The notes beneath the pieces are model-generated. The model saw only the letters and a program-made list of their open reading frames with translations. It made no database searches and was not told the DNA's origin. Below, in pieces: positions 8,871 through 63,979 of a stretch of DNA of 64,000 nt. The DNA is taken from NCBI GenBank assembly GCA_035528155.1, contig DATKZA010000035.1, positions 5,840 through 69,839 of the forward strand. Direction: 5' to 3'. A program made the translations under genes and the position numbers. How positions within the stretch are numbered: position 1 is the stretch's first letter; each line of letters opens with the position of its first letter. The stretch is from Patescibacteria group bacterium. Lineage in GTDB: Bacteria; Acidobacteriota; Aminicenantia; UBA2199.

Positions 8871-10094
8871 ATGATCATGCTGAAGATCGCGTTTCGAAAT
8901 ATTTTCCGGCAAAAAAGACGCTCCACGCTGACGGCGCTGAGCATGTTCGGCGGGTTTGTTCTGGCGGCGTTCTTCATAGGATTTTCCGAAGGCACCTACA
9001 ACGATATCATCAACAAATTCACCCGCAGCCAGACCGGGCATATCCAGGTGCACCGTAAAGGCTACCTGGCCCATCCCTCCCTGTACAAAACCATCGACCT
9101 GCCGGAGCGGGCGGCAAAGATCCTGGGGCAAATGGATAAAGTGGATTCCTGGGCGCCGCGTCTCTATTCCGCGGGCTTGGCTTCGCTGGGCGACAAAAGC
9201 ACCGGGGTGCGGATCATCGGTATTGATCCGGAAAAAGAGGTGCGAACCACCAAGTTCGCGGAAAAAGTCATCGCCGGGTCCATGTTTGCGGCCAATGATG
9301 CCCATGCGGTGATGATCGGCAAGGGACTGGCCAGACTTTTGCATGGGGCTGTGGGCCAGGATGCGGTGATCGTATCCCAGGCGGCGGATGGGTCCATCGC
9401 CAACGACCGGTACAAGATCGTGGGCATCCTGGAGAGCGGCGACGAGATCGGCGATCGCTCGTCCTTTTACCTTCCCCTGGCCGCCGCCCAGGAGCTGCTG
9501 GTTCTGGAGGGACGCATCCATGAGATCGCCGTCACGGCCCGCACTCTGCATGATGTGGCCCCGCTTGACAAAATCCTGGAGAAAAAATTAGCCGCAGTGG
9601 ACGCCCGGCTGTCGGTAGAACCCTGGCAGGAGTTCGCCAGGTCCTTTTACATCGCCATGCAGGCCGATAAAGCCGGCATGTGGATCTCGCTGCTGATCAT
9701 TGTCCTGGTGGTGGCCGTGGGCGTATTGAACACCGTGTTGATGTCCGTACTGGAGAGGCGGCGGGAGTACGGCCTTTTGAAAGCGGTGGGGACCAAGCCG
9801 GACCAGATCATCAAGATGGTGCTGCTGGAAGTCAATATCCTGGGAGTGATCTGCATTGTCCTGGGAAGCCTGGTGGGGCTGCTTTTGAACTACATCTTTT
9901 CCATCCACGGCATTTCCATGCCCGAACCCATGACCTACGGCGGCATTCAATTTCAACACATGTTTACGGAAATCAATGTCATGAGCTTCACCATCCCGGC
10001 CGTCACCGTGTTTTTGTCGGCCACCCTGGTGGGTTTTTTCCCGGCGTTGAAAGCCGCCCATACCGACCCGGCCAGGTCCATGAGGACCCATTGA
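8871..10094 (+). CDS. FtsX-family ABC permease (LolC/LolE-like, ~407 aa)
   Basis: MIMLKIAFRNIFRQKRRSTLTALSMFGGFVLAAFF is a LolC/E-type N-terminus; the protein has 4 TM helices with a large periplasmic loop. Confidence 0.85.
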   Translation: MIMLKIAFRNIFRQKRRSTLTALSMFGGFVLAAFFIGFSEGTYNDIINKFTRSQTGHIQVHRKGYLAHPSLYKTIDLPERAAKILGQMDKVDSWAPRLYSAGLASLGDKSTGVRIIGIDPEKEVRTTKFAEKVIAGSMFAANDAHAVMIGKGLARLLHGAVGQDAVIVSQAADGSIANDRYKIVGILESGDEIGDRSSFYLPLAAAQELLVLEGRIHEIAVTARTLHDVAPLDKILEKKLAAVDARLSVEPWQEFARSFYIAMQADKAGMWISLLIIVLVVAVGVLNTVLMSVLERRREYGLLKAVGTKPDQIIKMVLLEVNILGVICIVLGSLVGLLLNYIFSIHGISMPEPMTYGGIQFQHMFTEINVMSFTIPAVTVFLSATLVGFFPALKAAHTDPARSMRTH

Positions 10095-20361: not shown

Positions 20362-20907
20362 ATGGTTATGGAGACCATTGATTTCAGCGGCATCTCTTGC
20401 CAGGTGGTGCGCCGGAACCGGCGCCGGGGGGTGCGCATCGCTTTCCGCGCTGGCCGCCTGCAAATCGTCCTGCCCCGCAACCTGAATCCGCTGCCGATCA
20501 TGAACCGCCACAAGCAGTGGATATTGAAAAAGCACGAATGGTTCCGGCGGCAGCAACTCCTGGCCGAAGCATTGGAGCTCAGTCAGCGTTCGAACGAAGA
20601 ATTTTTAAGCTTGGTGCGGGACTTGAACGGGAGTTATGCCGGGGTTCTGGCGGCGCGGCCCTCGGGGATCGCTTTAAGAAAGATGAAAAGCAAGTGGGGG
20701 AGTTGCAATCCAAAGGGGAAGATCTGCCTGAACACCTGGCTGCAGGCCCTGCCTGACGAACTGATCGCCTTCGTGATATTTCATGAACTGGCCCATCTCA
20801 AGGTTCGCAACCACGGCCCCGAATTCAAGGCCCTGATCCGTTCCGCATTCCCCCATTACCGCGCCCTGGACAAAAAATTGCGGCTCTACGGCCTGAAAAT
20901 CCTTTAA
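20362..20907 (+). CDS. YgjP/DUF45-family metal-dependent hydrolase (SprT-like HExxH)
   Basis: C-terminal FHELAHLKVRNHGPEF zinc-binding motif characteristic of DUF45/YgjP. Confidence 0.7.
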   Translation: MVMETIDFSGISCQVVRRNRRRGVRIAFRAGRLQIVLPRNLNPLPIMNRHKQWILKKHEWFRRQQLLAEALELSQRSNEEFLSLVRDLNGSYAGVLAARPSGIALRKMKSKWGSCNPKGKICLNTWLQALPDELIAFVIFHELAHLKVRNHGPEFKALIRSAFPHYRALDKKLRLYGLKIL

Positions 20908-20932
20908 ATCAATACTTCAAAAAAAAGAAATA

Positions 20933-21895
20933 TTATGCCAAGAGTGTCCGAATCCAACCATCTAATAATGTATCATTTAAATAAAATGAGAATCCCAAAA
21001 CAAGTAATCCAATGAAAGAAAAACAAATGATGAGAAATAGAGAATAAAAAGTGAGTTTGAATTTTTTTCTTTTTAATAAAATAGTGGAAAACAAGAATAG
21101 GAAAAATAGACTTAAGATGAAGCCTATTAAAGCAAATTGTCCCCAAAGAAGACTTCCTAATGAAGAAAAAATAAAACAAAGAAAAAAAAGCCAGAAAATT
21201 TTCGGAAATTTTTTATGATAATATTTAAATAACAAAATCCATAAAGCGAATAAAAATACAACGTGCAATATTAACAACGGATAAGGAAAAAAATCCTGCA
21301 AATGAAAAATAATCCATTCGTTCATTTCGCTCAGTACGGGGATTTCTTTAATAATCATAACTCCAGTTAGCATATAAATCCAAAAATGACGAAAAAACCT
21401 GTGAGTTTTAGTTTCTGGAATGAATGGCTCGGTTAAGTCGGAAACGGATTTGCCTGGACCCAGAATTTCAAAATCTTCTTTGGCTTCATCGGAAAATTTG
21501 GTTCGATCGCAAAATGTCGAGGTCAAATGATCAAAAAAATTTCGATTTGCATAAACTAAATATGTTTGTCCAACAGTAAAGAAGTAAGCACAATTGGTTC
21601 TGTTCAAGCACAAAACAACAGAATTACCTTTTAATTCTCCTTTCCATACCCGGAATATGCGGAATTTGTAAGTCGGCCACACCAAACCCATCTCAGGGAA
21701 AAGCTTTGGCCATAAAGACTCAACTCGGCCTTCAAAAACGGCATCCGCTCTTAACAGCGCAATATCTGGTGATGGTGAACCGCATTTGCATGCATAAGCA
21801 ATTTCATTGGCTAAAATTAAAATTGAAAACAATAAAAAAAACAGGAATTTGAAATGAAAAGATTTTGAGAATATATTGCTTCCTAAATTTATCAT
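20933..21895 (-). CDS. secreted/membrane protein, paralog A: signal peptide (..IAYA|CKC..), Cys-containing NTR/TIMP-like N-domain, C-terminal ~5-6 TM region
   Basis: Sits in an AT-rich island. It is paralogous along its full length to the upstream gene, and its ATG overlaps that gene's stop (ATGA). An AxA signal-peptidase site is followed directly by Cys-x-Cys. The Cys spacing and the motifs SPSPDIALLRADAVFEGRVES, RVWKGEL, CAYFFTVGQTYLVYANR and TFCDRT match an NTR/TIMP-like module. Confidence 0.6.
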   Translation of the reverse strand: MINLGSNIFSKSFHFKFLFFLLFSILILANEIAYACKCGSPSPDIALLRADAVFEGRVESLWPKLFPEMGLVWPTYKFRIFRVWKGELKGNSVVLCLNRTNCAYFFTVGQTYLVYANRNFFDHLTSTFCDRTKFSDEAKEDFEILGPGKSVSDLTEPFIPETKTHRFFRHFWIYMLTGVMIIKEIPVLSEMNEWIIFHLQDFFPYPLLILHVVFLFALWILLFKYYHKKFPKIFWLFFLCFIFSSLGSLLWGQFALIGFILSLFFLFLFSTILLKRKKFKLTFYSLFLIICFSFIGLLVLGFSFYLNDTLLDGWIRTLLA

Positions 21896-22833
21896 GCCAA
21901 TAAAAAGTGAATCCAGCTGAATTTATCAAATGGGGAATGAACAAGATACCCAAAAACAAGTAATCCAAAAAAAATAAAAAATAAGCTAAAGGCAAGATAA
22001 TAAAATGCAAGCTTGAATTTTGCTTTTATAAAATGAAAAATGGAAAACAAAATTAAAATAAGCACATTCAAGCAAAAACCGATATACGGAGATCTGCTCC
22101 AAAAGAAATTTCCAACTACAGAAAAGAAAAAACATAGTAAAGAAAACAATAATATTGCAGGAAGTTTTTTATGGAAAATTATGAAAAATGAAACCCATAA
22201 ACCTAGAAAAAAAAGCAGATGCAATGCGAAAAGCGGATAGGCGAGGGGAGCACTTTCCCAAAAAAATTCAAATCCTTTAGATTCAATTAATTCATTTATT
22301 ATCATCAAACCTGACAGCATATAAATCGCAATGTGCCGGCAGAACCTGCGGATTTTGCTTTCCGGGATAAATGGAGTTGATAGATCAGAGATAAATTTGC
22401 TTTGTCCTAAAAGTTCCATGTCTTCTATAGCTTCATTGGCCTCGTTAGTTCTATCACAAATAGTGGAGTGCAATAGTTTTGAAAATTTATCTCGACTTGC
22501 ATAAACCAGATATGTTTGGCCGACACTAAAAAAATAATCACAATTGTTACCACTTGTTATGAGGTCAATGGTATTGCCCCGCAATTCCCCTTTCCATATT
22601 CGGAAAATATGGAATTTGAAAGTTTGCATCACAAAATTCGAAGCCCAGTAAGGGCGGACAAGTTTCGGCCAGACCGACTCGACCCGGCATTCAAAGACGG
22701 CATCCGCTCTGGAAAAAGCAACATCTGAAGGAGGTGTGATACATTTGCATGCATAAGCAATATCGCTGGCTAAAAATAAAAAAGAAATTAAAATAATGAT
22801 TAGAACTTTAAGTTGAAATGTTTTGCTTGGCAT
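21892..22833 (-). CDS. secreted/membrane protein, paralog B of the NTR/TIMP-like + polytopic membrane architecture
   Basis: Same architecture as paralog A (..IAYA|CKCITPPSDVAFSRADAVFECRVES.., ..NCDYFFSVGQTYLVYASR.., ..STICDRT..); SD GAGG 5 nt before the ATG. Confidence 0.6.
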   Translation of the reverse strand: MPSKTFQLKVLIIILISFLFLASDIAYACKCITPPSDVAFSRADAVFECRVESVWPKLVRPYWASNFVMQTFKFHIFRIWKGELRGNTIDLITSGNNCDYFFSVGQTYLVYASRDKFSKLLHSTICDRTNEANEAIEDMELLGQSKFISDLSTPFIPESKIRRFCRHIAIYMLSGLMIINELIESKGFEFFWESAPLAYPLFALHLLFFLGLWVSFFIIFHKKLPAILLFSLLCFFFSVVGNFFWSRSPYIGFCLNVLILILFSIFHFIKAKFKLAFYYLAFSLFFIFFGLLVFGYLVHSPFDKFSWIHFLLA

Positions 22834-22853
22834 ATTTCCTCAATAACTTTTCA

Positions 22854-24008
22854 TTAAAGGATCATATCGCTCCACAGCCGGTCGAGAAAATCCTGCCAGG
22901 GCAGGATGAGGATGCCGTCGGAGGTCAAGCGCGAGCGGGGATCCAGTGAGACCAGGTAGCAGCGGGCTTCGTGTTCCTGGCGGAAAGCCCGCAATCCCCT
23001 GAGGTGGTGGTCGCCAGCGGCCGTGGTCGACTTGATCTCCACGGCCACCTGGCCATCGCCCAGGACCAGGTCCACTTCCAATTGCGAGGCCGTCCGCCAA
23101 TAAGCGATGCCGGGATCGCGCTCCGAATAGGCCGCCCAGGCAAAAACCTCCATGACCAGGAAGTGCTCGAAGGCGCGGCCGAACAACTCGGATCCCGGCT
23201 GGACCGGTCCGCGGCGCGCAAGCCACGAAACGATGCCTGTGTCGAAAAAGAAAAATCTGGGGGCCTGGATGAGGCGGCGTTTCACCCTGCGGCGAAAGGC
23301 AGGAAGGAAGCGCCCGATCAGGGTGTTCTCCAGGATCTGGAAATACCCCTTGACGGTATGTGCGCTGACGCCGCAATCGCTGGCGATGTTCAAAAAATTG
23401 ATCATCTCGCCGTTGGATAGGGCCGCGACCTCCAGGAAACGACTGAAGGCGGGGATGTTGCGCGTTACGGCCTCGACGGCGATCTCCTCCTTCAGGTAAT
23501 CGCCGACATAGGCTTCCAGGAGTTTGCCAGGCTGCGCGCTCAAGTAGTGTCTGGGCAGCAATCCATGATTCAAAGCTTTCTGCAGAGAAAAATCGGGGAT
23601 CTCCGGGGAGGTCAGCGGCATAAGTTCATAGCGAATCGCCCTTCCTCCCAGCAGGTTGGCGTGGTTCCTTTTCAGCTTGCGGGGGCTGGATCCGCAGAGG
23701 ATGAATCGCAGGCCACGGTTTTCGATCAGCCAGTGGACCTCGTCGAGAAGGCCGGGGATCTTTTGCACTTCGTCAATGACGATCGGTTGTTTTTGGTTCG
23801 AGCCGTTCAACCCGCTCGCCTCACATTCCTGGCGCAGCCGTTCGGGATAAGTGACGAAACTGCGGTACAGGTCGGCCAGAAGAAGATCGTAATATTTGGC
23901 ATCCGGAAAGAGCGTTTTCAGCAGGGTGCTTTTTCCGGTTTGCCGCGGCCCCCACAAAAAACAGGATTCCTTTTCGCTTTGGCTCAGGACAAGTTTTCTT
24001 TTAAGCAT
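22854..24008 (-). CDS. AAA+ ATPase of the AAA_14/DUF4143 type
   Basis: Walker A GPRQTGKST, a Walker B-like IVIDEVQ, and a C-terminal DUF4143-like region. It ends 20 nt upstream of paralog B on the same strand. Confidence 0.8.
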   Translation of the reverse strand: MLKRKLVLSQSEKESCFLWGPRQTGKSTLLKTLFPDAKYYDLLLADLYRSFVTYPERLRQECEASGLNGSNQKQPIVIDEVQKIPGLLDEVHWLIENRGLRFILCGSSPRKLKRNHANLLGGRAIRYELMPLTSPEIPDFSLQKALNHGLLPRHYLSAQPGKLLEAYVGDYLKEEIAVEAVTRNIPAFSRFLEVAALSNGEMINFLNIASDCGVSAHTVKGYFQILENTLIGRFLPAFRRRVKRRLIQAPRFFFFDTGIVSWLARRGPVQPGSELFGRAFEHFLVMEVFAWAAYSERDPGIAYWRTASQLEVDLVLGDGQVAVEIKSTTAAGDHHLRGLRAFRQEHEARCYLVSLDPRSRLTSDGILILPWQDFLDRLWSDMIL

Positions 24009-24208
24009 GATATTTCTTAATGTGCTTCTATTTTATCATGATAGAATGCATCAATCCTTCCGATTATCATCATTGTTATTGTAATTCTGAAAAAATAAAA
24101 TGTCAAGGGACTAACGAATTATTTAATTTTGCTTTAAATTAGGAAAAGTATGAAAAAGGGACATATTGCAGCCTTCTATTTCTGAAAAGTATTTAGACCC
24201 CCGTCAGC

Positions 24209-24237
24209 TTGACAATATCCGGGTGAATCGTTATACT
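24209..24237 (+). promoter_or_regulatory. sigma70 promoter for ftsK (TTGACA - 17 nt - TATACT)
   Basis: Perfect -35, 17-nt spacer and a 5/6 -10 in the AT-rich divergent intergenic region. The -10 ends about 8 nt before the ftsK ATG. Confidence 0.45.
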
Positions 24238-24245
24238 TTTTGCCA

Positions 24246-26519
24246 ATGGCAAAGGTGAAAAAAGAGAATTTCAACGATAAAGAACTATCGCTTAAAAACG
24301 AAATCATCGGAATTTTGGCGCTTTTTTCTTCCTTCTTCCTGATTTTCAGCTTGTTCAGCTTCACGCCGTTGGACCCAAGTTTCTTCCATTCCGCCCAGGG
24401 CCGCGTCGTGCACAATTTCGGCGGCCGGGTGGGAGCGGAACTGGCGACGCTGCTGTTCAACCTGTTCGGCTTCGCCTCGCTGCTGTTCATCCTGATATTC
24501 CTGTTTTTGACCGCGTTTTTCCTTTTCAACCGCCGCATCGGCCGAGCGATCAGCAAGGGAATCGGTTTTTTCATCCTGCTGGTGGCGCTGGCGGCATTCC
24601 TGGCCAACGTCAAACCCATGATCGCCGTGGCCGGGCAGCCGGTCCATTCCGGCGGCATGGTCGGCCTGTTGCTGAACAATTTCTTCAGCGCCCAGATCAA
24701 GAGCGGCTTCGCGGCGGCGTTTTTCCTTTCGCTGCTGGGCATTTCCCTGGTGCTGATCGCCAAGATATCGATTAGAAATATTTTTGTATTCCTGGCGCGC
24801 CTCCTGAAAAAAGTGGCTGTCATTCTGGCGGTTTTTTTCCAAAGACGGCTGGAAAATATCCGCAAAAATCGCAACCGCAAAAAAGTCCAGCAAAAATACG
24901 ACGAGGCAGAAGGGAATTTTGTGTTCAAAGGCAGGCAACTGCTTAAGGAAAGAGAAAAAGAGGTTGTCTCGCGCCCGGAAAAGAGAAACCTGGTAAAAAA
25001 ACCCAGCAAATTTCCCGAAGAGACCGGGATCTTCCCGGAATTGGAGCAGGAGTTTCAGCCCGATGCCGAGTATCAGCCGCCCCCGTTGACCTACCTGGAT
25101 GCCCCCAGCCGAAAAAGCCAGATCGATATCGACGAACTGGAAGAAAAAAAATTGGAACTGTCGCAACGGCTGCAGGAATTCAAGATCAACGGCGAGATCG
25201 CCGAATACACTCCCGGGCCGGTCATTACCACCTTTGAATTCGTCCCCGATGTCGGCGTCAAGGTCAAGGACGTGTCCAGCCTGACCGAGGACCTGGCCCT
25301 GGTGGTCAAAGCCCAGTATGTCCGCATCGAGCGCATTTTGGGCAAAAAAGCCATTGGCATAGAGATTCCCAACAAGAAACGCGAAACCATTCACCTGCGT
25401 GAATTGCTGGAAACCGCGCAATATCAGCATTCCAGCTCGCCGCTGACCCTGGCCCTGGGAAAAACCGCCAGCGGCGATATATTCATATCCGACTTGAAGG
25501 AAATGCCCCATTTGCTGATCGCCGGCGCCACCGGCAGCGGCAAGAGCGTGGCCATTCATTCCATCATCCTTAGTGTTCTGTACAAATCCTCGCCCAAGAC
25601 CGTTAAATTCATCATGATCGACCCCAAGCGCATCGAACTGGCCATTTACAACTCCCTGCCGCACCTGCTCACCCCGGTGGTGGTCAATCCCAAACTGGCC
25701 AAGAACGCCCTGGACTGGGCGGTTTTTGAAATGGAGAACCGCTATAAAAAATTGGCCATGCTGCAGGTGCGCAACATCGAGCAGTACAACAAGAAGCTCG
25801 AAATGCTCATCCAATCCGAAGATGAGGACCTGGAGCAGCTGGATGACAAGGAGCCCATTCCCTACATCGTGATCATCATCGATGAACTGGCCGACCTGAT
25901 GATGGTCTCGGCCCGGGAGATCGAGGACGATATCCTGCGCTTGGCCCAGAAGGCCAGGGCCATCGGCATTCACCTGATCCTGGCCACCCAGCGGCCTTCC
26001 ATCGACGTCATCACCGGCAGCATTAAGAATAATTTTCCCTCACGCATCGCCTTGGCCGTTCCTTCAAAGTACGATTCGCGGACGATCATCGACCAGATCG
26101 GGGCGGAAAAACTCCTGGGCAACGGCGACATGCTCTTCCTGCCTCCCAAGACCGCGTCCCTGATCCGCCTCCATTCGGCTTACGTTTCGGAAGCGGAGAC
26201 CGTGCGCGTGGTTAATTTTCTGTCCAAGCAGGCCAAGCCCGAGTTCAACACCCAGATCATCAAGCATTCCACCAAAAAAGAAGCAGCAGGCGATGACCAG
26301 ATCATGGATGAATTGTTTTTCGACGCCGCGGAAACCATCATCAGCACCGGCCAGGCGTCCGCCTCCTACCTGCAGAGAAAAATGAGCGTGGGCTACGCCC
26401 GCGCCGGGCGGCTGATCGACCAGCTCCAGGAAAAAGGGGTCATCTCGCCGCCCAATAGCCGCAACCAGCGGGAGATCCTCATGACCATGGACGACCTGCA
26501 GAACGTCAACAAAGAGTAG
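24246..26519 (+). CDS. ftsK: DNA translocase FtsK/SpoIIIE
   Basis: N-terminal TM helices, a linker, then the FtsK motor (Walker A GATGSGKS, ..ATQRPS..) and a C-terminal gamma domain. The track ORF starts at a TTG 6 nt upstream. Confidence 0.9.
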   Translation: MAKVKKENFNDKELSLKNEIIGILALFSSFFLIFSLFSFTPLDPSFFHSAQGRVVHNFGGRVGAELATLLFNLFGFASLLFILIFLFLTAFFLFNRRIGRAISKGIGFFILLVALAAFLANVKPMIAVAGQPVHSGGMVGLLLNNFFSAQIKSGFAAAFFLSLLGISLVLIAKISIRNIFVFLARLLKKVAVILAVFFQRRLENIRKNRNRKKVQQKYDEAEGNFVFKGRQLLKEREKEVVSRPEKRNLVKKPSKFPEETGIFPELEQEFQPDAEYQPPPLTYLDAPSRKSQIDIDELEEKKLELSQRLQEFKINGEIAEYTPGPVITTFEFVPDVGVKVKDVSSLTEDLALVVKAQYVRIERILGKKAIGIEIPNKKRETIHLRELLETAQYQHSSSPLTLALGKTASGDIFISDLKEMPHLLIAGATGSGKSVAIHSIILSVLYKSSPKTVKFIMIDPKRIELAIYNSLPHLLTPVVVNPKLAKNALDWAVFEMENRYKKLAMLQVRNIEQYNKKLEMLIQSEDEDLEQLDDKEPIPYIVIIIDELADLMMVSAREIEDDILRLAQKARAIGIHLILATQRPSIDVITGSIKNNFPSRIALAVPSKYDSRTIIDQIGAEKLLGNGDMLFLPPKTASLIRLHSAYVSEAETVRVVNFLSKQAKPEFNTQIIKHSTKKEAAGDDQIMDELFFDAAETIISTGQASASYLQRKMSVGYARAGRLIDQLQEKGVISPPNSRNQREILMTMDDLQNVNKE

Positions 26520-30912: not shown

Positions 30913-31605
30913 ATGAACGAATTTTACAATGATTTTATCGGCGTTATCGGCAGTCCCGCTCAAACCATCGGCAAAGTAATGGAGAAAAAACGCTGGCAGG
31001 GCGTGTTGGCCGTCATTCTGCTGCTGACCGCCATCACCACATTTCTTACCTATCCCATCACCAAGGTCGAACAGGCTAAGTTCATCCGTGATTCGGAAAT
31101 GGCAGACAAATTGAGCGAAGAACAATTGGCCAATTTAGACAAATTCACTCCCAGCCAACGCCTGACCGGTGCCATGTTTTCACTTGTTTTCGTCGGATTG
31201 ATGATCGTGCTGGCCGCTTTTTTCATCTATCTTTTTTTCAAGGTCGCCGGCAGCGAAGGAAATTATGTTCACTATTTTTCCGGAGTGGTGCATGCATCCA
31301 TTTTGGACATGTTCCTGGGCGGGATACTGAAATCGTCGCTGATCTTGATGAAAAAAACCATGCTGGTTCATACCGGGTTGACCATGTTTTTCCCGGGGAT
31401 GGAGTTCCGCAGTTTGCCTTATATTGTTCTTTCCCAGTTCGATTTCTTTTCCATCTGGTATCTCGTGGCCCTGGCCTTGGGCATCGCCGTTTTTGCAAAG
31501 ATCAGCGCCCAAAAAAGTATTTCCATCGCAGTGATGTATTTTCTTTTTAAAAGTCTGGTTTTTGTCTCATTTTCCTATTTCAGCATAAAATTATTGGGCA
31601 TGTAA
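30913..31605 (+). CDS. Yip1-domain/DUF1282-like integral membrane protein
   Basis: Five hydrophobic helices; N-terminal soluble region. Confidence 0.5.
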   Translation: MNEFYNDFIGVIGSPAQTIGKVMEKKRWQGVLAVILLLTAITTFLTYPITKVEQAKFIRDSEMADKLSEEQLANLDKFTPSQRLTGAMFSLVFVGLMIVLAAFFIYLFFKVAGSEGNYVHYFSGVVHASILDMFLGGILKSSLILMKKTMLVHTGLTMFFPGMEFRSLPYIVLSQFDFFSIWYLVALALGIAVFAKISAQKSISIAVMYFLFKSLVFVSFSYFSIKLLGM

Positions 31606-31755
31606 ACCGGGCTTTCATTTGTTGAAACTTCAGGTCCGCATTTCTGCCATAAACGCCAAAACACTTGACAATTCATTATTTTTCATATATTAATTCCAGT
31701 GTAATGGGAAAAATATTCGCATCCTGGCCATTTTTCTGAAACAGGGGAGAAAAAA

Positions 31756-33027
31756 ATGAAGAAACTGCTTTTTCTTATCATTTTTGTTTTTTTGGCGGCG
31801 GCCTTGATCGGCAGCGCTGAAGAGAGCAAAAGAATATTAAATATGCAGAAAGCGTATGTCTTTTTGCAGGAATCCTTGTTGATATCGGAAACGGATTTGA
31901 ATTGTTCATACTTCATCAAAGACGATGTGCCGCAGGATATCAGAATCGTTGGCAAAAACTCATTGACTCCCGAACGCAGGGAATTTTCCGACCATGATGA
32001 GTTGGTGATCAACAAAGGTTCCCAGGACGGGCTTAAAGAGGGAGACCTGCTCCTGATCATAAGCAAAGGCCGGGTCATCCGTCACCCCCGCAACCATGAC
32101 CGTTTGGGCCTGTATTTCCTGAAGAAATCGCTGGCCGAGATTACTTGCATTTATGACAAGCAGGCCGTAATCCAGTTGCAGAAAGGATGCAACCCTGTCA
32201 ATATCGGTGATTTCGGCATTCTATACAAGCCGGAACAGACGGTGTTTGCCCAAAAAATTGATTACAAGCTCTGCCGGATCCCGGCCAACGCCGTCAGCGG
32301 CAATGTCGTCTTTTTCGATCTGGGCCTGGGCCAGCTCGGAGAAATTGCCGGCGAATCTCAATATGTGACGGTAGACCTGGGAGAAGGGGTGGTCGGCAAA
32401 GGAACTTTCCTGCTGATTTACCGCCAAGTGGTTTCTGATCTGCCGCCCTTGATTATAGGCCTTGGTATCGTGATTCACAGCGAGAACACCAATTCTACGG
32501 TGAAAATACTTGATTCCAGTTCGGATGTCAAGATCAACGACCGGATGTTGGTCCTGCCCAAAGAGTTAATAACTGTCCCCGGCAGCGCCGGGGAAAGGGA
32601 AAATATCCCGATCGTGGACACGTTGCAAATCGAGAGCGAGGAACCTGGACAGACTGAAGGGGAGCCGGGAGCCGAAGAAATGATCGCTGACCTGAAAGTG
32701 GACGTCTTGTTCGATTTTGACAGCAAGCAGCCCAGCGGTGATCATGCTGCCGATTTTACGGCCATTAAGGAGTTTGTCGCCGCCAAAAGCGAATACCTGA
32801 TCACTCTGCGCGGCTATACCTGCAGCATCGGCCGGGAAGAATACAACCTGCGCCTCTCCTCGCAACGGGTGGAAACAATCAAGAATATTTTGATCAGCCA
32901 GTATGGGATCGATGCCGCCCACATCGAGACGTTCTTTTACGGCGAAAAAGAACCCCAATTCGACAACAGCAGTGAAGCGGAGCGCAGGAAGAACCGGTTG
33001 GTGAAGATCGAGGTGAACGGAAAATGA
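31756..33027 (+). CDS. OmpA-family protein (signal peptide, N-terminal repeats, C-terminal OmpA peptidoglycan-binding domain)
   Basis: C-terminal ...ITLRGYTCSIGREEYNLRLSSQRVETIKNIL... is an OmpA_C-type motif. Confidence 0.75.
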   Translation: MKKLLFLIIFVFLAAALIGSAEESKRILNMQKAYVFLQESLLISETDLNCSYFIKDDVPQDIRIVGKNSLTPERREFSDHDELVINKGSQDGLKEGDLLLIISKGRVIRHPRNHDRLGLYFLKKSLAEITCIYDKQAVIQLQKGCNPVNIGDFGILYKPEQTVFAQKIDYKLCRIPANAVSGNVVFFDLGLGQLGEIAGESQYVTVDLGEGVVGKGTFLLIYRQVVSDLPPLIIGLGIVIHSENTNSTVKILDSSSDVKINDRMLVLPKELITVPGSAGERENIPIVDTLQIESEEPGQTEGEPGAEEMIADLKVDVLFDFDSKQPSGDHAADFTAIKEFVAAKSEYLITLRGYTCSIGREEYNLRLSSQRVETIKNILISQYGIDAAHIETFFYGEKEPQFDNSSEAERRKNRLVKIEVNGK

Positions 33028-43645: not shown

Positions 43646-43690
43646 AAGGGCGGTTCGCGCTTGTCCCCGCCAGGGGGAACCGCCCCTACA
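43646..43690. repeat. REP-like palindromic element (GGGCGGTTC...GAACCGCCCCTACA) with enlarged loop
   Basis: Inverted arms GGGCGGTTC / GAACCGCCC. The 3' CCCTACA equals GTAGGG on the other strand. Confidence 0.5.
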
Positions 43691-43762
43691 TAAAAACCAA
43701 TTTGACAGTTTTTTGTCTGTTTGCCACAATGGGATTGGTTAGGAGATAAGGAAAGAGAGAGA

Positions 43763-44269
43763 ATGAACAAGATTGATACAACCAGGTTCCTGCGGCAAAT
43801 GAAATATCTGCCGGATATTATTCCTTTGGCCAATATTTTGCTGATTGTTGCATTGATTGTATTTCCTGGAGCAATTATGAATTGGAGTTTTCTCCCGGTA
43901 TTGGAAGAGCAAACAGAAATTAAATATGCCAATTATGAACCGTCAGGTTATTCATCTACGAGTGTGACTATTAAAAAAACTGGGGAAATTTATATTATTG
44001 ACCGTGAAATAGAAGATTTATCCAAAATGAAAGGTTTATTGGCTGATAGAATGGATGAATTTCAATCGAAAAGGCTTAGAATTTTTGCAGAATCAGAGGC
44101 GCCATGGGGGAAAATCATAGACGTATTGCAAGCTGCCAAGGAAGCAGGGGCAAAAATGGTGGGATTCATGATGGCAAGGGAATACAGTGTTTTGCATTAT
44201 TGGGAAATGAAAAAATTCTATCGTGAAAAGGGATTGAAAGAACCCTCGGTGTCCCAAATAACTCATTAG
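43763..44269 (+). CDS. ExbD/TolR-like biopolymer transport protein, orphan, in AT-rich patch
   Basis: N-terminal TM (LANILLIVALIVF) followed by an ExbD-like periplasmic domain (..IYIIDREI...RLRIFAESEAPWGKIIDVLQAAKEAGAKMVGF). SD present. No ExbB partner is adjacent. Confidence 0.5.
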   Translation: MNKIDTTRFLRQMKYLPDIIPLANILLIVALIVFPGAIMNWSFLPVLEEQTEIKYANYEPSGYSSTSVTIKKTGEIYIIDREIEDLSKMKGLLADRMDEFQSKRLRIFAESEAPWGKIIDVLQAAKEAGAKMVGFMMAREYSVLHYWEMKKFYREKGLKEPSVSQITH

Positions 44270-44277
44270 ATTTGTAA

Positions 44278-44305
44278 TGTTTATTAATGAGGGGGCGGTT
44301 CGTGA
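44278..44305. repeat. REP palindrome copy (GGGGGCGGTTCGTGAACCGCCC), degenerate head
   Basis: Lies 19 nt upstream of the RAYT start codon. Confidence 0.55.
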
Positions 44306-44323
44306 ACCGCCCATCTATATTGC

Positions 44324-44842
44324 ATGAAGTTCAATCCGGAAATCCATCATCGCCGGTCCATCCGCTTAAAGGGATACGATTATTCACGGAACGGAGCATA
44401 TTTCGTGACGATGTGTTCCTGGAACCGTGAATGCATGTTTGGAGAGATCGTTAATGGGAAAATTATCTTGAATAAATTCGGTTCGATCATCGCTGAAACA
44501 TGGTTATGGCTGGAGAAACGACATGATCATGTTGGATTAGCGGATTTTGTGATCATGCCAAATCATATACATGGAATATTGCTGATTGACCGATATTTGG
44601 GCGGTTCCCGAACCGCCCCTACACGAAGAATAAAACCATTGGGACGAATTCTGGGGGCGTTCAAGACACATTCGACCAAGTTGGTGAACAAATACCGGCA
44701 GACAGCTGGAGCTCCGATTTGGCAGCGCAATTATTATGAGCGCATCATCAGGGATCAATGCGAATTTGATCGAATTGGCAATTATATTGTCTCAAATCCT
44801 GCGAATTGGAATGATGATGAAAATAATCCCATCAATTTATAA
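44324..44842 (+). CDS. REP-associated tyrosine transposase (RAYT, IS200/IS605 TnpA-like HuH Y1)
   Basis: HuH motif MPNHIHGIL and a downstream IWQRNYYERIIRD / GNYIVSNPANW region with the catalytic Tyr; flanked by REPs. Confidence 0.75.
   Translation: MKFNPEIHHRRSIRLKGYDYSRNGAYFVTMCSWNRECMFGEIVNGKIILNKFGSIIAETWLWLEKRHDHVGLADFVIMPNHIHGILLIDRYLGGSRTAPTRRIKPLGRILGAFKTHSTKLVNKYRQTAGAPIWQRNYYERIIRDQCEFDRIGNYIVSNPANWNDDENNPINL
44597..44624. repeat. REP palindrome copy inside the RAYT coding sequence
   Basis: GGGCGGTTCCCGAACCGCCCCTACA encodes LGGSRTAPT in frame, in the loop after the HuH motif. Confidence 0.55.
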
Positions 44843-44870
44843 ATCAGGGAATGGTTATTCTAATTCTTTT

Positions 44871-62096: not shown

Positions 62097-62612
62097 ATGA
62101 AGTACAAATTCCACGTGGATAAGAAGATCGTCGAGGCCGAGATCGCCAACAGCGCCACCTTCCATTCGCCGACCGAAATCAAGGTCGACAAGACCAGACT
62201 CGAAATTCTGATTGGTGAGGTCAAGGACGAGGAGGTGCTTTCGTTCTTTGTCGACAACAAGCTGCACCAGGTGGAGATCGTCCGCGACGAAGGCGGTTAT
62301 CCCCAGGGAATCTATATCGACGACGAATTCTTCTCGGCCGCCCTGCTGAAAATCGACCGTCTGTTTTTGTATAAAGAAAAACCGGTCAGTGCCTCCAAAT
62401 CAGGCGTAGTCAAGAGCTTCATTCCCGGCTACATCAAGAAGATATTTTTCCACGTCCAGGACCGGGTCGAGGAGAACGACATCGTGCTGATCCACGAGGC
62501 CATGAAGATGGAGAACGAGATTCGCGCCCCCAAGTCCGGGGTCATCAAGTCCCTGGGCGTGCACGAGGGGGACAACATCCTGGCCAACCACCTGCTCTTC
62601 GAGATCGAGTAG
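62097..62612 (+). CDS. biotin carboxyl carrier protein-like (biotinyl domain with EAMKM)
   Basis: C-terminal ..IHEAMKMENEIRAPKSGVIKSL.. biotin-attachment motif. Confidence 0.65.
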   Translation: MKYKFHVDKKIVEAEIANSATFHSPTEIKVDKTRLEILIGEVKDEEVLSFFVDNKLHQVEIVRDEGGYPQGIYIDDEFFSAALLKIDRLFLYKEKPVSASKSGVVKSFIPGYIKKIFFHVQDRVEENDIVLIHEAMKMENEIRAPKSGVIKSLGVHEGDNILANHLLFEIE

Positions 62613-62667
62613 CGCTCCGCGTTTTTTTTATCCTGGCCTGGTTGCTGTGGTTCAGTCTATGGTAATA

Positions 62668-62692
62668 AAAATGCCCTGAATCAGGCATTTTG
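62668..62692. terminator. bidirectional hairpin (AAATGCC(C)TGA-A-TCAGGCATTTT), candidate intrinsic terminator after the BCCP-like gene
   Basis: A roughly 9-bp stem with one bulge, followed by TTTT on the plus strand; about 55 nt after the stop at 62612. Confidence 0.35.
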
Positions 62693-62867
62693 AAGATGTG
62701 TGGCTTAAAATAAGATTCTTATCCTGAGCAGAGGTCAAGATTTGCACAGAGGATGACCGTTCGCCCTCACTTTTTCCACAACAGTTTCACGCGGTGCGCT
62801 TGAAATTTGTTTTTTTTCCCTTGAGGTATAATCGACCCATGGGGCAAATTGATTTTCCTATCAGTTA

Positions 62868-63245
62868 TCAGTCAATATCACCCTCAATTTCACCAAAATC
62901 CTCAATGTCTGGCTCTTCAATCTTGTCGGGGACTTCAAAAGGCGCAACTAATGTTGTTGGTTTATTAACATTCGTCTCAACTCTCTTTTTATTTCTCACT
63001 TTGATGTCTTTTTTTGAAGAACATTTTTTCCCAAGGAGAGGTCGAGGTGGTGAAGGTGAGGGCGGTGAGCCCAATAATACAGATATTGATTTCATTATGG
63101 GTGTGTCATTGTCAGCATTTAAAATAGGAGTGATGATTAATGCACCTATAATAATGAGGTGTAAAAAAATCGAGACAGGAAAAAATAACCACCTTTTAGT
63201 TAATCTCTTTTTTTCAAGCAAATCACAAAATAAAACCTTTTTCAT
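62868..63245 (-). CDS. TonB N-terminal-only protein (TM anchor with SxxxH motif + Pro-rich spacer, no C-terminal TonB domain)
   Basis: AAGGAGGT lies 5 nt before the ATG. The TM helix FFPVSIFLHLIIIGALII carries the SxxxH signature of TonB. It is followed by SPPSPSPPRP and then an acidic tail. No TonB_C-like sequence appears in any frame downstream. Confidence 0.4.
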   Translation of the reverse strand: MKKVLFCDLLEKKRLTKRWLFFPVSIFLHLIIIGALIITPILNADNDTPIMKSISVLLGSPPSPSPPRPLLGKKCSSKKDIKVRNKKRVETNVNKPTTLVAPFEVPDKIEEPDIEDFGEIEGDID

Positions 63246-63412
63246 GTTTACCTCCTTAAATCTTTTCTTACATTATTTATATGTGATTTTTTGGAGGTTT
63301 TTTCGTTCTGAATCAAGATTTAGAACAAGTTTATAACTTAATTACATGCTGCTGCATTTAAATAAATATACTGATAAACTCAAGAACTCAAACACTGTCA
63401 CCTAGATCTTGT

Positions 63413-63979
63413 TTATTGCCGGTTTGCTTCGAAAGTGCCGAGGATCAATGCATCTCCAACATCGTTATAAAGATAACCGGCCATATGATCCGCATCACTC
63501 ATAACTCCCACAAACATAACATGCTTGGCAGAGCCTGTTGATTCGTCAATATAATAATGGCAGGGGAAGCGTAGATTAAGACCATCAAAATCATAGGTCT
63601 GTTTTCTTTTATTGTAGAGCCAAACTTCTTCGAGTTCGTTAAAAGAGAATTGCCATTCTTCCGGGAGGTTGAAACGAAAAGGTTCGGAGCCGGCATTATA
63701 GGTCACTTTAAAATCCCAGGTACCAACAACATCAAAAAGCTTCAATTCGTTGATCATGACAGCTTCAATAAAACCAACTCTTTGGGTGCCATCCTTTAAC
63801 TCACCAGTAATATGCCTGGATGATAACCTGGTACAAATAAAATTAAACTGTAGAGTTGTATGGCGATATCTGTCTTCATAGGGGAAACTTAACCGGATTT
63901 CATCTCCATCAGTGGTGTATGTCCCTTTATTTTCTGCAAATAAATCAAAATTACCGTCATCATACAAGGTTATAATCAT
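63413..63979 (-). CDS. hypothetical protein (188 aa), AT-rich region, no signal peptide
   Basis: An uninterrupted ORF with moderate complexity; no recognisable motif. Confidence 0.35.
   Translation of the reverse strand: MIITLYDDGNFDLFAENKGTYTTDGDEIRLSFPYEDRYRHTTLQFNFICTRLSSRHITGELKDGTQRVGFIEAVMINELKLFDVVGTWDFKVTYNAGSEPFRFNLPEEWQFSFNELEEVWLYNKRKQTYDFDGLNLRFPCHYYIDESTGSAKHVMFVGVMSDADHMAGYLYNDVGDALILGTFEANRQ

Follow-up and report, generated by a model that had tools for sequence, protein, structure and literature searches.

The animal TIMPs (TIMP-1 to TIMP-4, Pfam PF00965), together with the NTR domains, share a common OB-type barrel and carry a Cys-X-Cys motif directly after the signal peptide. 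Cys1 chelates the catalytic zinc of the protease under attack through its alpha-amino and carbonyl groups, and the disulfides that Cys1 and Cys3 form with their partners fix the inhibitory N-terminal ridge. The TIMP literature that we found treats the family as metazoan. Here we describe two adjacent genes, ISL_A and ISL_B, for putative bacterial members of this family that would be tethered to the membrane. The genes fill an AT-rich block in a 64,000-nucleotide stretch of contig DATKZA010000035.1 (assembly GCA_035528155.1, positions 5,840 to 69,839 of the forward strand), referred to below as the window, from a metagenome-assembled genome (MAG) of the Aminicenantia. Loci of relatives are denoted by L numbers and homologous proteins by P numbers.

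The sole experimental example of a bacterial TIMP-like protein that we found in the literature is Tim of Listeria monocytogenes, whose authors found no earlier record of such proteins in bacteria (PMC8235301). Like the ISL proteins, Tim is bacterial and membrane-attached, has a predicted TIMP-like domain and is encoded in an accessory locus that resembles a mobile element; unlike them, it is a lipoprotein (lipobox LTAC), lies next to the metzincin Mtz and is released by its cleavage (PMC8235301). The ISL proteins have instead a polytopic anchor and an A-x-A type cleavage site, and no metzincin is adjacent to their genes in the contexts seen.

Replacement-type flexible islands are hypervariable envelope loci, such as those for O-antigen or capsule with their AT-rich wzx and wzy genes. 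The ISL locus resembles these islands in its fixed position among core genes, its divergent but equivalent versions, its low GC content and its rare codons, as well as in the membrane or surface location of the products and in an apparent exchange by recombination in the flanks that involves no integrase. It differs from them in holding one or two genes only, in having an extra, empty state and in being absent from most species; moreover, its product is a protein of protease-inhibitor fold and not an enzyme of a glycan pathway. Judged by the sequence comparisons given below, the locus is a replacement-type hypervariable locus, a known kind of genomic phenomenon, of which it offers a small and clean example. 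A third described system, PDC-S01 of PADLOC (AAA_14/DUF4143), is matched by the ATPase encoded upstream of the ISL genes, which is patchily present at the same hotspot but has a host-like GC content and occurs with or without ISL.

The account that we favour, with moderate confidence, is that the ISL pair forms a membrane-anchored TIMP-like accessory cassette that is exchanged at the site between ygjP and ftsK by recombination, its low GC content being a stable trait of the family.

TIMP-like architecture of ISL_A and ISL_B

The two open reading frames (ORFs) are intact, arranged in tandem and co-directional on the minus strand, the start of ISL_A overlapping the stop of ISL_B by 4 nt. They fill the AT-rich block and their products are 50% identical (E = 2e-84), so that the block coincides with a pair of paralogues, as had been proposed in an earlier reading of the DNA made from its letters (hereafter the sequence-only reading). 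Each protein consists of a hydrophobic signal peptide ending in Ala-Tyr-Ala, a domain of about 120 residues starting with Cys-Lys-Cys, and five predicted transmembrane (TM) helices. The motif ...IAYA/CKC..., in which the slash marks the predicted cleavage site, is invariant in all ISL alleles. ISL_A and ISL_B are real genes, since the ORFs are intact, the ratio of non-synonymous to synonymous divergence (dN/dS) between ISL_A and its counterpart P0004 in L057 is 0.22, and the AlphaFold2 (AF2) model is confident: its pLDDT averages 80 and exceeds 90 in most 10-residue blocks of the N-terminal domain.

When the AF2 model was compared with the PDB by Foldseek, TIMP-1 and TIMP-2 accounted for the top seven matches (probability 1.0, with E-values between 7e-6 and 5e-5), the best TM-score, 0.70, being obtained on N-TIMP-1. 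The matches that came next, agrin NtA, the NTR domain of PCOLCE and C345C of complement C5, are known members of the NTR/TIMP fold. TIMP-2 was also ranked first by a profile of 17 sequences (E = 0.02). With a family profile of 104 sequences the match to TIMP-2 reached E = 3e-7, and it was aligned from mature Cys1, on which Cys29 of ISL_B falls, to residue 102. Four cysteines of ISL_B (Cys29, Cys31, Cys98 and Cys126) are invariant across the 104 homologues. In the sequence alignment they fall on Cys1, Cys3, Cys72 and Cys101 of TIMP-2; disulfides like Cys1-Cys70 and Cys3-Cys99 of TIMP-1 may form between them. About a third of the family (34 of 104 members) individually passes the Pfam TIMP model, the best E-value being 1.3e-10. 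Tied to TIMP through the family profile and the predicted structure, ISL_A and ISL_B are, on these models, divergent members of the TIMP family.

A search of 1.84 billion representative proteins placed 7,096 bacterial representatives (50% identity) in the superfamily of the N-terminal domain at E <= 1e-3, and six in the close clade of full-length ISL proteins at E <= 1e-30. As modelled, the combination of a TIMP domain with a five-helix membrane anchor is a new architecture within a large and almost unstudied bacterial branch of the TIMPs.

Several observations weigh against the assignment to the TIMPs. Scanned by themselves, ISL_A and ISL_B gave no Pfam match at E <= 1 and no NCBIfam match. 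No cysteine other than the four is conserved in the 104-sequence family, and consequently the third disulfide of N-TIMP is absent; residue 2 of the mature ISL protein is Lys, unlike the Ser or Thr of animal TIMPs; and the cleavage after Ala-Tyr-Ala is predicted solely from the A-x-A rule. Besides being bacterial, the ISL proteins also differ from the described TIMPs in lacking the C-terminal TIMP subdomain, the place of which is taken by the five predicted helices of the anchor.

Alleles and states of the site between ygjP and ftsK

The order of core genes at the site is M16, M16, beta-CASP MBL and ygjP on one side and ftsK on the other. The site was surveyed in the 15 GTDB species representatives that share this order. 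Four states occur among relatives: empty, ATPase only, ISL only, and both. In 12 of the 15 representatives the site is empty (ygjP, about 47 nt, ftsK); these include L007-L009, the MBL protein of which is 94% identical to that of the window. The DUF4143 ATPase gene stands alone between ygjP and ftsK in 3 of the 15 (L010, L013 and L016). Hence the adjacency of ygjP and DUF4143, which the sequence-only reading had wished to see checked in related genomes, recurs in these three but not in the 12 in which ygjP lies next to ftsK. None of the 15 carries ISL, the closest relatives included, and ISL-bearing loci are known from metagenomic contigs only.

When the window was set against the empty sites of L007-L009, L011, L012 and L017 and the ATPase-only sites of L010, L013 and L016, an accessory segment of 3.3 kb was delimited, running from just 3' of the ygjP stop (20908) to 24195, before GACCCCCGTCAGCTTGACA of the ftsK promoter. 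The compositional island is the AT-rich two-thirds of this segment; the rest comprises the GC-normal DUF4143 gene and a promoter region of 26.7% GC.

An ISL gene follows DUF4143 in L001, L002-L004, L057 and L059. In L006 it is present without DUF4143, but a remnant of the DUF4143 C-terminus and the upstream region are kept there, which shows that the ATPase gene was deleted. Two ISL copies occur in the window alone, every other ISL-bearing lineage having one. Eight contexts were recovered for the ISL clade; seven of them are this Aminicenantes site, the exception being the more distant P0018. When metagenomes were scanned with the ISL alignment, only two short contigs were added, one of them from the window's own organism.

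Between ygjP and either ftsK or DUF4143, the same site thus holds divergent ISL alleles in L001, L002-L004, L006, L057, L059 and the window. They fall into at least six classes that are about equally distant from one another, with an amino-acid (aa) identity of about 45%, their mature parts being 59-66% identical in nucleotides (nt). The only closer pair is ISL_A and the allele of L057, with 86% nt identity in the mature part. Since ISL_A and ISL_B resemble each other no more than they resemble the alleles of other lineages, the tandem pair would represent two stacked allele classes rather than a recent duplication in place.

Along the locus, the identity between lineages changes in steps. Compared with L001 and L002, the DNA of the window is about 90% identical over DUF4143, the spacer and roughly the first 84 nt of ISL, the values against L002 in this stretch being 93-98%. 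At about 22750 the identity falls within a few codons to 55-65%, stays there for the whole of the mature ISL part, and is back at about 80% in ygjP. Similarly, the signal-peptide stretch of ISL_B is 85-94% identical in nt to the other alleles and its mature part 62-63%. The step at the junction of signal peptide and mature part appears to mark a recombination boundary. The synonymous divergence (dS) of the neighbouring genes is likewise uneven: it is 0.33-0.50 for DUF4143, 0.8-1.2 for MBL, FtsK and YgjP, and at least 1.35 (saturated) for ISL. Against L057 the order is reversed, with 0.52 for ISL_A (79% aa identity), 2.2 for DUF4143 and 1.3 for ygjP, the flanks overall giving 1.3-2.2. Because the dS values are discordant in this way, neighbouring segments have had different histories.

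From the breakpoints in identity and the discordant dS we infer that homologous recombination in the flanks carries ISL alleles from one lineage to another. The conserved DUF4143 gene and the signal-peptide codons would serve as one recombination arm and ygjP as the other. It may be noted that homologous recombination needs no integrase, which would explain what is missing from the edges. Like the sequence-only reading, we found no integrase, tRNA or direct repeats there: the segment encodes ISL_A, ISL_B and the ATPase only, neither a tRNA nor a tmRNA gene occurs in the window, the block is not flanked by direct or inverted repeats, the similarity of the paralogues aside, and a search for Rfam families, tRNA genes and repeats in or near the island gave none. 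An integrase-free islet may thus move by recombination in its flanks.

A mobile-element origin was considered and set aside: searched with the ISL alignment or with ISL_B, viral contigs, GenBank phages and plasmids held no ISL relatives, save for one weak match of the N-terminal domain in a Bacillus record of the plasmid collection.

Some further features of individual loci were seen. The ISL gene of L006 is frameshifted, the intact version of that allele being P0007. Between ftsK and ISL in the same locus (about 9620-10000), a GC-rich nested palindrome of about 90 nt, REP-like in look (CTCACCCCCAGCCCCTCTCTTT...AAGAGAAGGGGGTGGGGGATGAG), lies between the remnant of the DUF4143 C-terminus and the old upstream region. 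P0018, from an 11-kb contig of JGI sample 3300075153, is the sole full-length ISL-like homologue at another locus. It lies near tyrS, lptF/G and the genes for pyruvate:ferredoxin oxidoreductase, is less AT-type in its amino acids (FYMINK 0.28) and is divergent from a gene for a 408-aa protein with faint retropepsin-like aspartic-protease matches.

Composition of the AT-rich block

The GC content of the block (20908-22853) was 33.1%, that is, the one-third which had been estimated by eye, compared with 53.9% in the rest of the window. The estimate of about 60% for the flanks agrees with the adjoining genes (57-58%) but is too high for the window as a whole (54%). Non-overlapping windows of the same size had a mean GC of 0.540 (sd 0.035, minimum 0.422), giving z = -6.0 for the block. 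The tetranucleotide distance between the block and the rest of the window was 0.70, as against 0.24 +/- 0.04 for other windows (z = 11.9), making its signature the most deviant in the window. The analyses of GC, third-position GC (GC3), codons and k-mers that the sequence-only reading had recommended thus all place the block outside the normal variance of the window.

The sharpness of the boundaries was also borne out. In windows of 200 nt, GC dropped from 0.555 (20700-20899) to 0.245 (20900-21099) on the left and rose from 0.365 (22700-22899) to 0.665 (22900-23099) on the right. The contrast in GC over 150 nt was largest at 20896 and 22872, points 11-19 nt away from the limits that had been given for the block, and the edges lie no more than about 20 nt from the ends of the ISL genes. 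Within the block, the membrane domain of ISL_B is the most AT-rich part (25-30% GC).

GC3 was 0.30 for ISL_A and 0.32 for ISL_B, compared with 0.70-0.78 for five flanking genes, and GC1 and GC2 of the two genes were also below those of the flanking genes. The AAA- and TTT-rich codon usage described earlier is clear: AAA makes up 95% of Lys codons in the ISL genes and 54% in the flanks, and TTT 71% and 34% of Phe codons, respectively. TTA is the commonest Leu codon of the ISL genes (34 of 92), whereas the five flanking genes use it in 2 of 283 cases. The long A/T runs are real as well, 17 of the 197 runs of at least 6 nt in the window falling inside the block, which makes up 3% of its length.

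All known ISL alleles at the locus, in at least six lineages, are AT-rich (GC 0.32-0.38, GC3 0.28-0.40), compared with a GC3 of 0.53-0.84 in the host flanks. Since allele classes at saturated synonymous divergence all keep a GC3 of 0.28-0.40, low GC content appears to be a stable and durable trait of the ISL family and not the fading mark of one recent foreign import. Of the two explanations offered by the sequence-only reading, a gene family kept at a distinct composition is therefore borne out by the alleles. The other, horizontal acquisition, is upheld in a modified form, as an accessory cassette exchanged among relatives: ISL is absent from all 15 representatives, and the dS between ISL_A and its counterpart in L057 (0.52) is well below that of the flanks (1.3-2.2). 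It would follow that atypical composition, although usually read as a sign of recent foreign DNA, can be a lasting feature of flexible genes that are a clade's own.

Bacterial mutation is generally AT-biased, and core genes are kept GC-rich by codon selection, by GC-biased gene conversion, or by both. A likely and economical mechanism would be that AT-biased mutation acts on ISL alleles that are rare, divergent and weakly expressed, and that these alleles lack the GC-restoring forces (codon-usage selection and GC-biased gene conversion) which act on core genes that recombine. In this host, ISL translation would also be throttled by the many TTA and AAA codons.

The wider family does not share the AT-richness, since its homologues P0019-P0025, except P0022, are of GC-type, with FYMINK values of 0.13-0.17 against 0.33-0.40 for ISL. 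A TM-rich amino-acid content as the only cause of low GC was tried and rejected: the TM region of ftsK in the same genome has a GC3 of 0.75, and in homologues that are GC-rich an identical architecture is made up of Ala, Leu, Val and Arg. As a separate point, the translation of ISL may depend on the rare tRNA-Leu(UAA), which would act as a built-in throttle of expression.

Origin of the segment

Three other accounts of the origin were weighed against exchange at the site. One is a single recent acquisition from a foreign donor of low GC, the composition of which has not yet been ameliorated; this was the first idea of the sequence-only reading, and we regard it as improbable. Part of it agrees with the data, as ISL is accessory (present in 0 of the 15 representatives) and the closest relatives lack it (L010 and L013, with an MBL dS of about 0.3, and the empty L007-L009). 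GC1, GC2 and amino-acid composition are all AT-shifted, as after a long residence at low GC. Aminicenantes relatives of low GC exist (L023 and L024, 34-35% GC), so that an unsampled low-GC reservoir is possible. When the pair of ISL_A and L057 was polarised at third positions, 12 changes from AT to GC were counted and 4 from GC to AT, although the sites are few and the outgroup both biased and saturated; an older import may thus be undergoing slow amelioration. These last two points speak against a stable low GC content, and a further one bears on the history of the window: the spacers of the ATPase-only sites (L010, L013 and L016) contained only trivial AT-rich matches when searched for ISL remnants, so that gain and loss look alike in the window's lineage. 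The donor from outside is nevertheless unsupported. ISL occupies this site in at least six other lineages, always AT-rich and with alleles at saturated dS; neither the 1.84 billion representative proteins nor 5.8 billion clusters at 90% identity held a closer homologue, nor were there relatives in the viral, phage and plasmid collections. Moreover, the DUF4143 and ygjP recombination arms are clade-specific, and any donor must therefore belong to the same clade. The same AT-rich genes are found in conserved synteny in relatives, a pattern that the sequence-only reading had itself named as speaking against a recent acquisition.

An ancestral gene, vertically inherited, very fast-evolving and repeatedly lost, with no horizontal exchange, would account for synteny that is kept across lineages whose core flanks are only 57-82% identical in protein. 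Deletion at the site is documented by the loss of DUF4143 in L006, and the dN/dS of ISL (0.22-0.3) is above that of the flanks. We hold this account to be unlikely, though worth keeping in view, as the low dS between ISL_A and L057 relative to the flanks is the opposite of a fast local clock and the identity changes stepwise at the junction of signal peptide and mature part, not gradually. Furthermore, 12 of 15 representatives have a clean empty site of 47 nt with no remnant, and the two copies of the window are no closer mutually than to the alleles of other lineages. An artefact, whether a chimeric assembly, an AT-rich fragment put in the wrong bin or chance ORFs in AT-rich non-coding DNA, might be suspected because NCBI files the source MAG under the Patescibacteria group, at odds with the names given to its relatives. 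It is scarcely credible, however, given that an independent assembly from another metagenome (L058) contains the junction of ISL_A, ygjP and MBL at 100% identity, that P0001 is recorded on five contigs, that the same arrangement recurs in several independent samples, and that both ORFs are intact, under purifying selection and confidently folded.

Possible function

By analogy with the TIMPs, ISL would be tethered to the membrane, face outwards and bind or inhibit a zinc metalloprotease through a free N-terminal Cys. Cleavage after Ala-Tyr-Ala would expose Cys29 as the free N-terminus on the outer face of the membrane, on a TIMP-type wedge with two predicted disulfides and a five-helix tether. 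The target would be a bacterial or phage zinc protease engaged in a TIMP-like mode; this is the best-supported guess. Against it stands that none of the contexts examined tied ISL to a cognate metalloprotease or metzincin. The M16 and YgjP genes nearby, which are metallopeptidase-like, belong to the core and occur regardless of ISL, and the contexts of distant homologues of the N-terminal domain (Lederbergia P0012, P0017) showed no consistently adjacent metalloprotease.

The diversity of the alleles, the constant signal peptide joined to a variable mature part, the patchy presence and the neighbouring candidate defence gene fit an antagonistic or surface role. Together they suggest an antagonistic interaction, be it with a protease of a competitor or phage or at the exposed cell surface.

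An extended form of the inhibitor proposal, which we consider doubtful as a whole, is that the ISL proteins are membrane-tethered immunity-type inhibitors against secreted zinc-metalloprotease toxins of competitors or phages. They would form a miniature defence hotspot beside the ATPase, would gain diversity as allele cassettes are exchanged and stacked downstream of an unchanging signal peptide, and would be AT-rich through escaping GC-biased gene conversion, as diverged alleles seldom recombine. If it were true, it would supply the first physiological role for the uncharacterised bacterial TIMP branch (about 7,100 cluster representatives) and a natural test of what maintains GC content.

In the context of P0017 (L063, 5001-7412), the TIMP-like domain of a distant homologue is joined to a CarboxypepD_reg-like region (a faint Pfam match). 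The gene is directly followed by one of the AstE/AspA family, which is related to zinc carboxypeptidases, and which might be a lead to a protease or hydrolase partner.

The DUF4143 ATPase and the putative operon

The coordinates of the ISL genes, their domains and the neighbouring features are collected in Table 1.

Table 1. Features of the accessory segment and its flanks, in coordinates of the window
Feature	Coordinates	Strand	Basis
ISL_B, 313 aa: signal peptide, TIMP-like OB-fold domain and five TM helices	21892..22833	-	ORF, homology, predicted structure
ISL_A, 320 aa, paralogue of ISL_B	20933..21895	-	ORF, homology; closest allele P0004 in L057 (79% aa)
ISL_B signal-peptide codons 1-28, ending AYA before CKC	22750..22833	-	Allele alignment
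ISL_B TIMP/NTR-like OB-fold domain (predicted), aa 29 to ~150, invariant Cys29, Cys31, Cys98, Cys126	22384..22749	-	Profile, structure
ISL_B C-terminal membrane domain, five predicted helices, aa 160-299	21937..22356	-	Predicted structure
ISL_A TIMP-like domain, aa 36 to ~157	21425..21790	-	Approximate limits from ISL_B alignment
ISL_A C-terminal membrane domain	20978..21397	-	Approximate limits from ISL_B alignment
AT-rich compositional island, 33.1% GC	20908..22853	none	GC, tetranucleotide and codon analyses
Whole accessory segment (ISL_A, ISL_B, DUF4143 ATPase and AT-rich upstream region)	20908..24195	none	Comparison with empty and ATPase-only sites
AAA_14 + DUF4143 ATPase, host-like GC (58%)	22854..24008	-	Pfam, PADLOC PDC-S01 match
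DUF4143 upstream region, 26.7% GC, 187 nt, between the divergent DUF4143 and ftsK	24009..24195	none	Junction comparison
ygjP-like gene, core left flank; insert begins right after its stop codon	20362..20907	+	
ftsK promoter TTGACA-17-TATACT (24209-24237) and ftsK gene (24240-26519), core right flank	24209..26519	+	

The DUF4143 ATPase is itself accessory, being missing in 12 of the 15 related species. It matched seven PDC-S01 models of PADLOC, the E-value to PDLC04790 being 1.8e-52, and is on this similarity a candidate defence protein only. Between lineages its dS is roughly one half of the value for the core genes around it, an indication that the ATPase gene also spreads horizontally in the clade. 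The region 24009-24195 is present only where DUF4143 is or was present. It is missing in the relatives with an empty site, and we therefore count it as part of the accessory segment. It contains a near-consensus, promoter-like site on the minus strand (TTGACA-17-TACAAT, 24106 to 24078).

From the stop of DUF4143 to the start of ISL_B there are 20 nt, with a conserved ribosome-binding site, GAGGAAAT, ahead of ISL_B. No promoter-like or terminator-like site was found between DUF4143, ISL_B and ISL_A. Given the short gap, the ribosome-binding site, the overlap of the two ISL genes and the lack of such internal sites, DUF4143, ISL_B and ISL_A probably form one operon, of which DUF4143 is the first gene.

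Other AT-rich patches and database labels

Three other patches of the window are AT-rich. The second most AT-rich of all (62600-63700, with GC down to 0.28 near 63100) may be an accessory islet; it overlaps minus-strand ORFs 62868-63245 (125 aa) and 63413-63979 (188 aa), both of which have no Pfam match. A moderately AT-rich patch at 43650-44850 (GC 0.34-0.44) contains an ExbD/TolR-like ORF (43721-44269, E = 7e-6) and ORF 44324-44842, which has a sub-threshold match to an IS200-like Y1 transposase (E = 0.005) and could be a REP-associated tyrosine transposase. The short patch at 31300-31800 (GC 0.35-0.42) spans the 3' end of the gene for a Yip1-domain membrane protein (30913-31605) and the start of an OmpA-family gene (31756-33027).

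The MAG with these exact proteins (locus tags VMZ49_02675 and VMZ49_02680) is labelled 'Patescibacteria group bacterium' at NCBI, probably wrongly. The labels of its relatives are inconsistent: loci with an MBL protein 92-94% identical appear as Chrysiogenales/Chrysiogenia, Aminicenantes or Acidobacteria, and some at 59-79% as 'Clostridia'.

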